This document shows, in pieces, positions 46,722 through 52,916 of a stretch of DNA of 64,000 bases (the first letter of the stretch is position 1; each line of letters begins with the position of its first letter). Where the stretch lies: contig JBQMXM010000001.1 of NCBI GenBank assembly GCA_052174015.1, forward strand, positions 27,962 to 91,961, in the 5' to 3' direction. Under the pieces are notes generated by a model that was not told where the DNA came from, did not search any database, and saw only the letters and a program-made list of their open reading frames with translations. The DNA is from Clostridium sp. (GTDB lineage Bacteria > Bacillota > Clostridia > TANB77 > CAG-508). Both the position numbers and the translations under genes were made by a program.

Positions 46722-46798
46722 GGCGAAGTAGCTCAGTTGGCTAGAGCATTCGGTTCATACCCGAAGGGTCATGTGTTCGAGTCACATCTTCGCTACCA
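46722..46798 (+). tRNA. tRNA with CAT anticodon (elongator tRNA-Met or lysidine-modified tRNA-Ile2), CCA encoded
   Basis: Cloverleaf read by eye: acceptor GGCGAAG/CTTCGCT, D-arm GCTC-AGTTGGCTA-GAGC, anticodon stem TTCGG/CCGAA with loop TTCATAC, T-arm ATGTG-TTCGAGT-CACAT, 3' ACCA. Confidence 0.88.
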
Positions 46799-48265: not shown

Positions 48266-49927
48266 TTATTTAATATATTGTGATATTAATTGTATCATTG
48301 TATTTTCTTCTGTTTTTTGTAAATATACTTTATCTATATCTATACATTTTTTTAACATAGATATTATTAATTTATCTTTTGGAAACTTAGACATATCTAA
48401 TTTAAGTATATATATTAATACATTATTATCCTGTTGTTTTTTTATTGTATTAATTTCATTATTAGATAGAATATATCTATTTATTTCTTCATCATTTATT
48501 GTAACTATATATCTATTTACATTATTTATATTATCTCTATCTTTTACTGCATCTTCTAATGCATCTTTTAATTTTTCTATATATTCTGTATATGAAATAA
48601 TTTTAAGTTTTTCTTTTATAATTTTCAATCTTTCTTGATTTTTAATAACTTTATCCAAAATTGATTGTAATATAGATATATCTTGCTTATTTAAAACTTT
48701 ACATTTATTTAATTTAAAATACCAATTATACCTAGATATATATGTATTTGCATTCAAATTATTATCTTTTTCCATTATATTCTTTTTAGTATTTCCTTTT
48801 ATATTAGAACAATATTTAATATATTCAAATATATTTTTAAAATTACTATTAATACTTCCTATCCCTAACATTGTATAATATGATGTTCCTTCAATATTTT
48901 GAGAATCTAATTCATAAATATCCCAATCCTCATCAATAATCTTATTATTAGCATCTCGTTTAGTAAATTGAAGTTTTTGAATTATTTCAGTTGTATCAAA
49001 AATATAGTAATTTTCTTCAATTTTAAATAAATTCCATGCATGCCCCATATTATTTAAGTCTTTGATTCTTCCAATTACAATTGCACTTTCAAGATTAAAT
49101 ATATTAGATAACAACTCTATACTTTGACTCATTGTTATACATACACCTATATTTTGTAATATTCCCTCTAAATGTGAAGATAAATAATATACATCTTTAA
49201 ATTCAGGCAAATATTTAAGTAAATTGTCTTTAGATACTTTTTCATACATTATATTTTTTCTTACTTCTGAATATATATGATATATTAAGTTTAAAAGTTT
49301 TTCAGTATTATTATTAAACATTTTTTGTTTTTTTAATATATTTCCACTTAAATTTTGCTCTTTATATGCATCAGAATATTTTAAAATATATTTATCACTA
49401 AAATAGTGATTAATATTTTCTTTAATTACATTATTTATTTCATCAATATCTTTTATATTTATATTATTAATATCTACTTTTTTAATATCTTTTTCTTCAT
49501 ATAGTGCCTTGTTTAATACTTGAATGGCTATAATATATATTTCTTCTAAAACTTCTAAAAATTTATTAATATTAATTCCCTTGCTATAATTTCTTTTAGT
49601 TATTTGCTCTATATATCCAATATTACCTATGATAATATCTATATCAAAATATATATCATCTACTCTTTTTTTATTAACTCTAGCTAATTCTGATTTTAAA
49701 TTTGTTATCTTTTCTATCACAGCATTACTTATATATTTAATATTATCTATTACAATCTTAATTGTTAAAGTATTATGTTTTTGCGTTTCTATATACTTAT
49801 TTAAATATTCTTCATATTGTATATATTCTATAAAACTTTTAGGATTATTTTTTAACCTATCTATTATATTATCTATTTGCTCTACTGTATTTATATGCAC
49901 AAATTCTTTTATATACACTTTATCCAT
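48266..49927 (-). CDS. Transglutaminase-like (Cys-His-Asp) domain protein, 553 aa
   Basis: Segment GVCITMSQSIELLSNIF...AIVIGRI...MGHAWNLFKIEENYYIFDTTE matches the transglutaminase-like cysteine protease core (C...HxW...D). Start moved to the ATG at 49927 (AGGGGT RBS). Confidence 0.5.
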   Translation of the reverse strand: MDKVYIKEFVHINTVEQIDNIIDRLKNNPKSFIEYIQYEEYLNKYIETQKHNTLTIKIVIDNIKYISNAVIEKITNLKSELARVNKKRVDDIYFDIDIIIGNIGYIEQITKRNYSKGININKFLEVLEEIYIIAIQVLNKALYEEKDIKKVDINNINIKDIDEINNVIKENINHYFSDKYILKYSDAYKEQNLSGNILKKQKMFNNNTEKLLNLIYHIYSEVRKNIMYEKVSKDNLLKYLPEFKDVYYLSSHLEGILQNIGVCITMSQSIELLSNIFNLESAIVIGRIKDLNNMGHAWNLFKIEENYYIFDTTEIIQKLQFTKRDANNKIIDEDWDIYELDSQNIEGTSYYTMLGIGSINSNFKNIFEYIKYCSNIKGNTKKNIMEKDNNLNANTYISRYNWYFKLNKCKVLNKQDISILQSILDKVIKNQERLKIIKEKLKIISYTEYIEKLKDALEDAVKDRDNINNVNRYIVTINDEEINRYILSNNEINTIKKQQDNNVLIYILKLDMSKFPKDKLIISMLKKCIDIDKVYLQKTEENTMIQLISQYIK

Positions 49928-50103
49928 ATTTACCCCTATATACATATTATATATTATTAAAATAAAAGTTAAAAGAGGTTAAAATATTAACCCCTTTTAG
50001 AATTTGTATATAGAATTTACAATAAATAATATTTTTACTTATTTTAATTCATTAGTTTTTTTAGTTATATATATGTTATTTTTTGTTAAGTTTTACTAAT
50101 AGA

Positions 50104-50601
50104 TTAATAACTCATTCCCCATTTATTCCTTTTACAAGGAGACCAATCATCTTCATATGAATAAGGAATAGTTGCACAATTATCTTTTACATATTTTATT
50201 GATTTTTGTGCTTGTCTAATTGTTTTAACTATAAACTCTTTATCGTTATATTCGCTTTGCTTATATTTTTTTATATTTCTTCTAACTATCTCACGCTTAT
50301 ACATGACTAATTCTATAGCATCTTCTCTCTTTATTTTTTGATCTTTCTTTTTTTCCCTGTTTCTAGGTTTCCAGTTATCTTCATAAGAAAATTCAATCTT
50401 ACAATGTGTTTGCCTTTTAACACTTCTTATTCCACTTTGTAATATTTTTATTTTTTTAGCAACTTCTTCTTTTTCATTGCCTTTGCAAAACTTGTATTTC
50501 CTTATATTTTTCCGAATAATTTCCCTTCTGACATTAATCATTTCAATAGCTTGATTATAGTCTATCCACTTATTAGTATTATTTCTCATTAAATTTCTCA
50601 T
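50104..50601 (-). CDS. Hypothetical basic protein made of two tandem ~75-aa repeats, each ending in SYED(N/D)W
   Basis: The two repeats share AIE(M/L)(I/V)xxRREI(I/V)R(K/R)NI(R/K)KYK...(F/Y)SYED(N/D)W. A paralogous single-repeat gene lies 260 nt upstream. Confidence 0.45.
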   Translation of the reverse strand: MRNLMRNNTNKWIDYNQAIEMINVRREIIRKNIRKYKFCKGNEKEEVAKKIKILQSGIRSVKRQTHCKIEFSYEDNWKPRNREKKKDQKIKREDAIELVMYKREIVRRNIKKYKQSEYNDKEFIVKTIRQAQKSIKYVKDNCATIPYSYEDDWSPCKRNKWGMSY

Positions 50602-50864
50602 TAAACTTCAACTCCTTTTAAGTAACATATATATTAATACTAACTAATTATATTTTAACATATATATAAATATATTCAATTAAAATATAGATTTTTTATG
50701 TTTTTTTATGTTTTTTTATAATATTTTATACAATTTTTTCAATTTTTAACTATTAGTATATGCAAAAGAGGCTAAAAATTAGCCTCTTTTTTAATACATA
50801 AGCAAATAATATATTTACTTACTTTACTATATTTAGTCAACTTACTTAGTTTGTTATTACTAAA

Positions 50865-51062
50865 CTAGATGTCCCAATCGTCTTCATATGAAGATATTGG
50901 GTTTTCTAAATACTTTTTTAACCCTGATATTTCTTTTTGCAAGTTTTTTATTTCTTGCAACTTTTTGTCTTTTTCTTTTTTATCTTGGAGAGTATTATAC
51001 TCCAAAATCAATTTTTTGATTTTACCTCTGCGATTCTTTATTGCAGCAATTATGTTTTTCAT
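50865..51062 (-). CDS. Small basic helical protein ending in SSYEDDWDI (single-repeat paralog of 50104..50601)
   Basis: 65 aa. AIKNRRGKIKKLI...ISGLKKYLENPISSYEDDW aligns with the repeat unit of the neighbouring gene. Followed by a hairpin + T-run terminator at 50763-50795. Confidence 0.4.
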   Translation of the reverse strand: MKNIIAAIKNRRGKIKKLILEYNTLQDKKEKDKKLQEIKNLQKEISGLKKYLENPISSYEDDWDI

Positions 51063-51234
51063 AACAACTCCCCTCCTTAAATCAATAACAAAACTAACTT
51101 AAGTATAACCTAAATATATTTTAACACATATCTCAATATTTTCAAATTAAATATTATTTTTTTAACACAAATTAATAAATTAATGTAATAAAATTATCCA
51201 CATAATATATATTATATGTGGATAATTATTGTAT

Positions 51235-52821
51235 TTATTTATCTAAATCAATTATAATATCAGCACTCAGCACCTTATTATATTTTCTGTTATGTGAAAT
51301 ACTAATTATCGTCCCCTTATATGACTTAATTAAATCATATATTATTGTTATTGCTTGTATATCTAAGTGATTTGTAGGTTCATCTAAAATTAAAATATTA
51401 GTATTATTTAATGCAAATTTTGCTAAATTTACTCTTGTTCTTTGTCCTGCAGATAAATCATTATATTTTTTATCTTTATCTAAATATGATATATTGAACT
51501 TTTTTAGTATTGTAAATATTAAAGTATCATCTACCTTTGTATTGGAATTATTTTTTAAAATATCTTTAGTTAAATATTCATAAATACTAATATTATTAGT
51601 TTTATCAATATTTAATAATGTTTCTTGTGATATATATCCAAATTTACATGCACTACCTATATCTATACTTCCTTCTATTGGAGATATTTGTTTTAATATA
51701 GTTTTAATAAGTGTTGTCTTTCCACTTCCATTTCTTCCAACTATATTAACACGACTTCCAAATGGTATATTAAAATTTAATTTTTTTGTTTTAAAGTTAT
51801 CATACCCACAAACTAAATTATTAATTATTATATCCTTATTACCTTTTACATCATCAAAATTAAAAAAGTAGTCTATACCTTTATTATACTCAAATTCAGG
51901 TATAATAATTTCATCTAATTTTTTATTAATTTTAGATATATTACTATTATTAGTTTTTTCTTTAGCAAAATTATTAGCTATTTTATCATTATCTTTAAAA
52001 CTTTTTTTACTATTTCCACTATTTGCCCAAACTTTAGATTTTTGTAATTGTTGTTTTAGGTTATTTTTCTCTTCAATCGCTTTTTCATATTCTTTCATCT
52101 CTCTATTATATGAGATTTCTTTAATATTTAGATAGTCTCTGTATTTGCAATTAAATTCTTCTATTTTCCCATTTTCTAATTCAATAACCTTATTTACTAT
52201 ATTTTCTAAAAATTCTTCATCATGTGATACTATAATTAAAGTTTTTTTAATATTTTTTAAAAATTCTTCTAAATATTCTAATGTCTCTAAATCAATATTA
52301 TTAGTAGGTTCATCTAATAGTAAAATATCAAATTCTGCAATATGTAAATTGACTAATAACACCTTTATTTTTTCTCCACCTGATAATTCTTTAATTTTAG
52401 TATCAATACCTTTATTTAGTTTCAGTTTATTCATATATTTTATAACATTTGCTTCAAAATTATATCCATCTAATGCAAGATATTTTTCTAATGCTTCTGT
52501 ATATTTTGATAAATCTTTAATTTCTGATTCTTCTAAGATTTCTTCATATTTATCAATCATATTTATGTGTTTTAAATATTGTATAATACTATACTCATTA
52601 TATTTTATAGGTATTTCTTGTTCTAAAAAATGAATTATTTCATTTCCTAATATACTACCACTAAAATCTTTGATTTTACCATTAATTATTTTCAATAATG
52701 TAGTTTTGCCACTTCCATTTTTACCAATAAGTCCTATCTTATCTCCATTATTAATAGTAAAACTAATATCATTTAGAATATCTTTTCCACCTATAGTATA
52801 TTTGATATTATTTAATATCAT
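51235..52821 (-). CDS. ABC-F family ATPase (two tandem ABC domains, no TMD)
   Basis: Walker A GKNGSGKTT and GRNGSGKTT, signatures LSGGEKIKV and LSAGQRTRV, Walker B ILLLDEPTN in both halves. Start moved to the ATG at 52821 (AAGGGGAG RBS); the ORF-track start at 52854 is a GTG. Confidence 0.85.
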   Translation of the reverse strand: MILNNIKYTIGGKDILNDISFTINNGDKIGLIGKNGSGKTTLLKIINGKIKDFSGSILGNEIIHFLEQEIPIKYNEYSIIQYLKHINMIDKYEEILEESEIKDLSKYTEALEKYLALDGYNFEANVIKYMNKLKLNKGIDTKIKELSGGEKIKVLLVNLHIAEFDILLLDEPTNNIDLETLEYLEEFLKNIKKTLIIVSHDEEFLENIVNKVIELENGKIEEFNCKYRDYLNIKEISYNREMKEYEKAIEEKNNLKQQLQKSKVWANSGNSKKSFKDNDKIANNFAKEKTNNSNISKINKKLDEIIIPEFEYNKGIDYFFNFDDVKGNKDIIINNLVCGYDNFKTKKLNFNIPFGSRVNIVGRNGSGKTTLIKTILKQISPIEGSIDIGSACKFGYISQETLLNIDKTNNISIYEYLTKDILKNNSNTKVDDTLIFTILKKFNISYLDKDKKYNDLSAGQRTRVNLAKFALNNTNILILDEPTNHLDIQAITIIYDLIKSYKGTIISISHNRKYNKVLSADIIIDLDK

Positions 52822-52916
52822 AAATATCACTCCCCTTATATTTAATTTAATCACTTTTAATAAATTATATATATTAAATAAAGCAAACTAAATAATTAGT
52901 TTGCTAATATCACATA

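Follow-up and report, generated by a model that had tools for sequence, protein, structure and literature searches.

What are the two small genes that lie side by side on the minus strand of this stretch of Clostridium sp. DNA, and what is the short acidic-aromatic segment, S-Y-E-D-x-W, that recurs in both of their products? The whole stretch, 64,000 nucleotides (nt) of contig JBQMXM010000001.1, is referred to here as the window; its positions are used throughout, and its features lie on the minus strand unless stated otherwise. A sequence-only reading, made without database searches, had placed open reading frames (ORFs) of 165 amino acids (aa) at 50104-50601 and 65 aa at 50865-51062, coordinates and sizes that proved correct, and had taken the segment for the C-terminal tag of a family that it did not recognise. 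We find that the two ORFs hold three copies of one domain, that this domain belongs to a family of small hypothetical proteins from many phyla, and that in the wider family its gene often stands beside that of a short SpoU-type 2'-O-methyltransferase. The identity and architecture of the window proteins can be stated with high confidence; for their function our confidence is modest.

The repeated unit and its family

The internal duplication proposed for the 165-aa protein is evident in local BLOSUM62 alignments, in which its two halves score 146 against 31 +/- 5.8 for shuffled sequences (0 of 2000 shuffles as high; z ~20). The 65-aa protein is, as had also been proposed, a single copy of the same unit, scoring 69 against unit 1 (0/2000 shuffles) and 59 against unit 2 (3/2000). 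The homologous units span ~67 aa, and their three-way alignment has 15 invariant columns, S-Y-E-D-x-W among them. Unit 1 (aa 13-79; 50365-50565) is a helix-loop-helix followed by the tail EFSYEDNWKP, and unit 2 (aa 89-155; 50137-50337), the window unit closest to the core family, has the tail PYSYEDDWSP; a basic linker, RNREKKKDQ (50338-50364), joins the two. The pattern [YFWSR]ED.W occurs in exactly three places in the six-frame translation of the 64 kb, and these are the three units: SYEDNW in unit 1 (50371-50388), SYEDDW in unit 2 (50143-50160) and SYEDDW in the 65-aa protein (50874-50891). Its description as C-terminal holds for the 65-aa protein, where the Trp is 2 residues from the C-terminus, and fails for the 165-aa protein, where the first motif lies inside the chain and 12 poorly conserved residues come between the second and the end.

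Judged by profile matches, membership of these units in a wider family is secure, since they are recognised by a profile (A5) built from distant homologues of other organisms only, with the window clade left out. In an hmmsearch of the six-frame window this profile matched unit 1 (E 8e-10), unit 2 (E 5e-14) and the 65-aa ORF (E 4e-10) and nothing further among 955 six-frame segments, the next best match having E 0.43. A further profile, A3, matched unit 1 at E 2e-25, and MAFFT placed every distant homologue on unit 2. When 1.84 billion representatives were searched by phmmer with the 165-aa protein, the clade orthologue was retrieved together with three short proteins (70, 70 and 111 aa; E 4e-5 to 4e-4), each ending S-Y-E-D-x-W-x-P, and a fourth, repetitive match, P0006 (E 7e-4). 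A profile search for phyletic spread had been suggested by the sequence-only reading; iterative alignment searches gave at least 279 clusters at E <= 1e-3, distributed over many phyla. Among the 120 matches listed of these 279, the proteins are 62-112 aa long and without Pfam domains, and the named ones are all called 'hypothetical protein'. Named members come from Nocardioides, Micromonospora, Dactylosporangium, Aeromicrobium, Rhodocyclaceae and KSB1 (examples are Nocardioides sp. LHD-245 RB608_10265, Micromonospora sp. CPCC 205558, Dactylosporangium sp. NPDC051541 and KSB1 ONB05_04005). Genome matches, from a scan with alignment A4, lie in Bacillota, metagenome-assembled genomes (MAGs) of Erysipelotrichaceae, Actinomycetota (Micromonospora, Solirubrobacterales), Verrucomicrobiota (Chthoniobacterales), Planctomycetota (Kuenenia) and delta- and alphaproteobacterial MAGs; a contig scan with the 165-aa protein as query gave no match. 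The repetitive P0006 (153 aa) has four tandem copies of CSVQFSLPDxWKPYN, which resemble the unit 1 tail EFSYEDNWKPRN, and is without the hairpin described below.

Neither window protein matches Pfam or NCBIfam, in keeping with the earlier failure to recognise the family, and scans of both proteins and of distant members against these libraries returned sub-threshold noise only. A profile search of Protein Data Bank (PDB) sequences found no relative, the best match being an AP-3 beta fragment (E 0.027); PHROG gave weak matches only (best E 7e-4) and no consistent family; and PADLOC gave none for core members or the tandem protein and two weak ones for the 65-aa protein (E 0.013 and 0.026). By tblastn, 72,556 plasmid and 50,697 phage records yielded no match, and full-text literature searches for the motifs and for a small partner of TrmH found nothing relevant. 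The ORFs are already called as hypothetical proteins in NCBI, in a 'Clostridium sp.' MAG (65 aa, ACTTGJ_00395 / MGP1608298.1; 165 aa, ACTTGJ_00390 / MGP1608297.1), and the family is in none of the curated libraries searched.

Over 121 representatives the family consensus reads GQRxAIREHIxKYxxYPxxxDKxFALKTIxxxQxxI...S[WY]EDxWxP, followed by a stop, and the canonical length is 65-70 aa. R16, K25, A38, T41 and D65 are present in all 121, and H22, K35, Q46 and W67 in 120. Of 116 family members, 81 place the Trp 2 residues from the C-terminus; members of the Erysipelotrichaceae type carry ~35-44 further residues after the motif, which read like an additional helix. At the other end of the chain, two proteobacterial members (L020, 4737-5180, and P0004) have a hydrophobic N-terminal extension resembling a signal peptide (for example MKIKIVSVVALSLTVLSSQVQA), which would imply an exported form of the domain.

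Set against this consensus, the window units are, by their sequences, divergent members of the family. They retain R16, K35, Q46, E64, D65 and W67, residues common to them and to the canonical proteins, with which they also share the domain itself and the predicted hairpin and tail. E21-H22 is replaced by K-N, R-N and K-L, and A38 by V, I and K; T41 is kept in unit 2 alone, K25 is Glu in the 65-aa protein, and the Y-P loop is gone. None of the window units thus carries the full set E21, H22, K25, A38 and T41, each of which occurs in at least 89% of the 121 representatives. The window units differ from the canonical family further in being much more basic, with isoelectric points (pI) of 9.5-10 and, in the tandem protein, a net charge of +21, in the tandem fusion of one of them and in having no adjacent SpoU gene. 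Outside the window clade, no tandem version appears among the 120 matches listed of 279 or in the representative search; the fusion is confined to this Clostridium-like clade.

All three units are under purifying selection. The sequence-only reading had allowed that the ORFs might show no coding signal in related genomes, which was not borne out: orthologues are present in related metagenome contigs, and the ratio of nonsynonymous to synonymous substitution rates (dN/dS) against them is 0.10-0.35 (65-aa gene 0.11-0.34, unit 1 0.15-0.35, unit 2 0.10-0.21), compared with 0.10-0.22 for AsnRS on the same contigs. For the terminal stretch of the 165-aa protein after unit 2, dN/dS is 0.4-0.7.

Predicted fold and the S-Y-E-D-x-W segment

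AlphaFold2 predicts the single unit as a helical hairpin, a common fold, with two ~24-residue helices and an ordered tail (predicted local distance difference test score, pLDDT, 91.6). The last 10 residues have a mean pLDDT of 93, with a short helical turn at S-Y-E. The tandem protein is modelled as two hairpins, each with pLDDT ~90 or above, in a structure with a predicted template modelling score (pTM) of 0.52; the helices of unit 1 span residues 11-34 and 38-59 (161-aa numbering), the linker has pLDDT 71-75, and the last residues after the second motif, with pLDDT 43-53, are modelled disordered. These hairpins and the high pI agree with the earlier description of the units as basic and helical.

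The S-[YW]-E-D-x-W segment is predicted to fold back along the antiparallel helical hairpin, where it could act as a clasp in which the Trp, together with the aromatic residue N-terminal to it, packs on the hairpin and the Glu-Asp pair faces Arg16 and Lys35. From antiparallel-hairpin geometry we infer that E64 and D65 face R16, K25 and K35 and that W67 lies near Y26, Y29 and P30. The acidic pair and the Trp are conserved along with the invariant basic hairpin residues R16 and K35. The motif would then mark the domain structurally rather than form a flexible tag.

The sequence-only reading had instead likened the motif to acidic docking tails such as the DDDIPF tail of SSB, observing rightly that the SSB of the window ends in a similar way (QDDISF). 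In both, a few acidic residues precede an aromatic one close to a C-terminus. The tail of SSB, however, follows a disordered linker and ends the chain, whereas the family segment is predicted to be ordered on the hairpin, can be internal and covaries with basic residues of the hairpin; there is no sequence relationship between the two. A free docking tail of the SSB kind does not fit a segment that is modelled ordered, internal in one unit and extended in others.

Several other assignments were tried and dropped. For a WXG100 or type VII substrate there is no Pfam match at E <= 1, and the loop, Y-P-x-x-x-D-K, is without W-x-G. The core family has R16-x5-H22, as might suit a HEPN RNase, but it is a 65-aa hairpin where HEPN domains have four helices and ~110 aa or more; it has no HEPN match in Pfam, and the window units are without the His. 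An encapsulated-ferritin-like metal site, prompted by E21-H22, was discarded for the window proteins, which do not have those residues.

Linkage to SpoU and what it suggests

Small proteins from 53 loci were clustered at 80% identity into 27 lineages, 9 of which had flanks that were too short. A SpoU gene lies within 0.85 kb of the family gene in 11 of the 18 informative lineages and is absent there in the other 7, which have at least 2 kb of flank on both sides. All canonical lineages from Bacillota of low guanine-cytosine (GC) content are SpoU-linked, in surroundings that are unrelated. The pair is found beside rnc and smc, upstream of ylxM-ffh-rpsP, after suf genes, and between rplA and rplJ, the last of these in a Bacillota contig (L056, 4001-4784) where it sits inside the secE-nusG-rplKA-rplJL cluster. 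SpoU may be downstream, upstream (contigs of 34-38% GC) or convergent (one contig of 74% GC), and the gap between the hairpin gene and SpoU can be as small as 1 nt (L005, L056). When neighbouring ORFs were compared by all-against-all BLAST, no other gene recurred across lineages.

The SpoU proteins linked in this way belong to a single orthologous group, with ~50-88% blastp identity over loci of 34-74% GC and 54-73% tblastn identity to the Bacillota copies. Their motifs (NxGTxxR, GREYDG, SINVS) are intact, a conserved HQLxKEELR extension lies at the N-terminus, and the chains stop ~4-30 residues past motif 3; the short TrmH-like signature is HQLxKEELR...HNIGTILRLSDA...PPNxKIKxSSRGAEKWV. Against the NCBIfam models for TrmH and RlmB they score below cutoff. 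Their best solved relatives are TrmH structures (1zjr, 7edc, 1v2x), whose deposited chains run 31-69 residues past the aligned catalytic domain.

In an Erysipelotrichaceae-type contig (L019, 5381-6055) a 224-aa ORF with HELIH (HExxH) and no Pfam or NCBIfam match lies between the hairpin gene and SpoU, and the spacing is similar in L036-L038, L041 and L042. In an Aeromicrobium contig (L052, 487-10219) the family gene stands between small genes of no recognised kind and genes for a 1008-aa TIR_2 protein and for a Prok-JAB/ThiF protein, which looks like a defence island, unlike the housekeeping contexts elsewhere.

On the evidence of gene neighbourhood, we propose that canonical members may be small partner subunits of the short SpoU 2'-O-methyltransferase, typically co-transcribed with it, and that they would serve as a substrate-recruiting module or regulator through a polar surface of R20, E21, H22, K25, K40 and T41. 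In the AT-rich Clostridium-like lineage of the window the gene was duplicated and one copy fused in tandem. The window copies kept the scaffold and the proposed clasp, lost E21, H22, A38 and mostly T41, and turned strongly basic. Because no SpoU gene lies in the 64 kb, the E-H/A-x-K-T surface is lost and the basicity is high, the window copies are read as a neofunctionalised expansion specific to this lineage; they are probably binding proteins associated with RNA or the ribosome, and the tandem protein would present two binding units on a loose tether. Taken as a whole (hairpin domain with a clasp, ancestry as a methyltransferase partner, neofunctionalised window copies), this explanation is tentative, and we give it somewhat less than an even chance of being right.

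Small activator or partner subunits have a precedent among class I RNA methyltransferases, where Trm112 plays this part. By analogy, the family protein is small, genetically coupled to an RNA methyltransferase, and might supply binding or stability that its partner is missing; it differs in having no homology to Trm112-type subunits and in a partnership read from gene neighbourhood. TrmH's C-terminal region, which takes part in initial tRNA binding (PMC5372735), is missing from the canonical partner SpoU, and the hairpin protein could stand in for it in trans. Any relation between the two would be one of functional analogy, not homology; even with the cutoff relaxed to E <= 10, the family profile matched none of the TrmH chains in the PDB. 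A review of SPOUT enzymes (PMC5372735) describes no bacterial SPOUT/TrmH enzyme that has a small subunit of its own. In a stronger version, a truncated TrmH-type enzyme would have the hairpin protein as its obligatory small subunit, giving a two-component SPOUT 2'-O-methyltransferase ranging from Bacillota to high-GC bacteria, in which the hairpin takes the place of the C-terminal tRNA-binding region or controls access to the active site; the window lineage would in that case represent a subunit that has escaped to become a free-standing basic binder of RNA or the ribosome. In this form we regard the idea as doubtful.

Several observations weigh against a methyltransferase partnership with RNA-binding descendants. 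The 7 informative lineages without an adjacent SpoU gene include Actinomycetota and Bacteroidota-like contigs. With three linked SpoU proteins as queries, tblastn found no SpoU in the 64-kb window (best E 0.69), nor is there one beside the clade orthologues (L001-L004, L050, L051), so that for the window genes the methyltransferase link is indirect. Core members are not uniformly basic (pI 4.8-10.3), and the apparent signal peptides of the two proteobacterial members fit poorly with a role in RNA modification throughout the family. No fusion to SpoU occurs among the 120 matches listed of 279, all of at most 112 aa, and the tandem model, at its pTM of 0.52, gives no confident inter-unit geometry. 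If the partnership is physical, the family would be, as far as we have found, the first case of a small subunit dedicated to a bacterial SPOUT (TrmH-type) RNA methyltransferase, and several hundred small 'hypothetical' proteins across many phyla would gain a function. The window locus, with its duplication, tandem fusion, lost polar surface and retained Trp and acidic motif, illustrates the evolution of such a small domain and offers a natural means of telling scaffold residues from functional ones. Should the partnership prove not to be real, there would still be a new, sharply bounded domain family that Pfam and NCBIfam do not contain.

Other explanations start from the motif or from the neighbours. 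S-Y-E-D-D-W could be a flexible acidic-aromatic docking peptide that recruits a client, with the hairpin as a spacer or oligomerisation module. The motif is indeed the best-conserved part common to the three window units, its Trp stands at exactly 2 residues from the C-terminus in the majority of members counted above (81/116), and P0006 strings together four similar motifs with no hairpin. The ordered tail (pLDDT 93), joined through no disordered linker, speaks against a docking peptide, as do the internal position of motif 1, the 12 residues after motif 2 and the extension in Erysipelotrichaceae-type members; the hairpin, moreover, is even more strongly conserved than the motif. We consider a docking peptide unlikely. 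It is also distinctly unlikely that the transglutaminase-like protein encoded downstream has the small proteins as its substrates or partners, through Gln-Lys cross-linking at Q46 and K35 or processing at the motif. Q46 and K35 are invariant, the 559-aa protein has a Cys/His/Asp triad (GVC...GHAW...FDTT), and the order 65 aa, 161/165 aa, transglutaminase-like is constant in all clade contigs, but these contigs are close relatives, so that little can be built on their synteny. Between the 165-aa gene and the transglutaminase-like gene stands a terminator, and outside the clade no family member adjoins such a gene; the one in L005, which lies on the other strand at a distance of 3 kb, is not orthologous, with 24% identity over the catalytic core alone.

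The pairing with SpoU itself can be read differently. A patchy phyletic distribution, small-gene/SpoU pairs in unrelated neighbourhoods with the 1-nt gap of L005 and L056, and the Aeromicrobium member beside TIR and JAB/ThiF genes would suit a mobile two-gene module of toxin-antitoxin or defence type, unrelated to RNA methylation, of which the window copies are orphan remnants. This is very improbable: across phyla, the conservation of both partners far exceeds that usual for toxin-antitoxin pairs, PADLOC and PHROG give no credible match, the plasmid (72,556) and phage (50,697) records hold none, and the window genes, which are monocistronic, evolve under purifying selection. A cis-acting leader or arrest peptide controlling the downstream gene would account for the E-D-x-W-x-P-stop ending of the core family, often directly upstream of SpoU. 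Yet the 65-residue sequence is conserved as protein over its full length and not at the C-terminus alone, SpoU is upstream or convergent in several lineages, both window genes have terminators of their own behind them and one of the motifs is internal, which makes such a W-x-P-stop mechanism extremely improbable. The proposal that we retain, tentatively, is that of a hairpin domain held by its clasp, with canonical members as SpoU partners and window copies that have taken on a function of their own.

The locus in the window and its relatives

In the window, whose GC content is 22.7%, the gene order is ABC-F (51235-52854), 65 aa, 165 aa, transglutaminase-like (48266-49945), then rpsF and ssb. 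The synteny ABC-F, 65 aa, 161/165 aa, 553-559 aa transglutaminase-like, rpsF-ssb-rpsR recurs in L001-L004, L050 and L051.

Both small genes have a Shine-Dalgarno sequence and alike promoter-like sites of the form TTGAA[AT]-N16-TGTTAAAAT with an extended -10 TG, identified by consensus match only: TTGAAA-16-TAAAAT at 51118-51145 for the 65-aa gene (10/12 in a consensus scan) and TTGAAT-16-TAAAAT at 50652-50679 for the 165-aa gene, the latter conserved in L001 and L050. The Shine-Dalgarno sequence of the 65-aa gene, AAGGAGGGGAG, lies 7 nt 5' of the ATG, and the two leaders are alike and ~60 nt long each. The likeness of promoter-like sites and leaders suggests that the duplication took in the regulatory region. 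Immediately 5' of the promoter-like site of the 165-aa gene there are two copies of a direct repeat, ACATAAAAAA.

At the start of the 165-aa ORF, upstream alignment reveals a 12-nt tandem duplication (50578-50601), ATGAGAAATTTA then ATGAGAAATAAT, which encodes MRNL-MRNN. The 12-nt unit is present as a single copy in the orthologues of L001 and L050 (161 aa) and duplicated in L051; the Shine-Dalgarno spacing of the 165-aa gene fits the first ATG of the duplicated start.

The separate terminator-like hairpins claimed for the two genes are both found. The one 3' of the 65-aa gene (50764-50790) has a 12-bp stem in RNAfold, with -17.7 kcal/mol, followed by UUUU, and is conserved in L001 and L050; the one between the 165-aa and transglutaminase-like genes (49970-49999) has 13 pairs and a T-run in the scan and -14.4 kcal/mol in RNAfold. 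With a terminator after each, the small genes would be monocistronic and the 165-aa gene transcriptionally apart from the transglutaminase-like gene.

The downstream protein was rightly described as transglutaminase-like: its ORF has 559 aa (553 from the second ATG) and a weak match to Transglut_core (E 0.005). NCBIfam, PHROG and PADLOC gave no match for it, and every clade contig keeps it downstream of the small genes. On the other side of the small genes, the ABC-F ORF as listed has a GTG start and 539 aa, whereas 526 aa are given for its orthologues, which makes the ATG that lies 13 codons downstream (MILNNIKY...) the probable true start. Farther away, a tRNA gene at 46722-46795, the sole Rfam match in the window at the gathering threshold, lies on the plus strand, opposite to nearly all protein genes.

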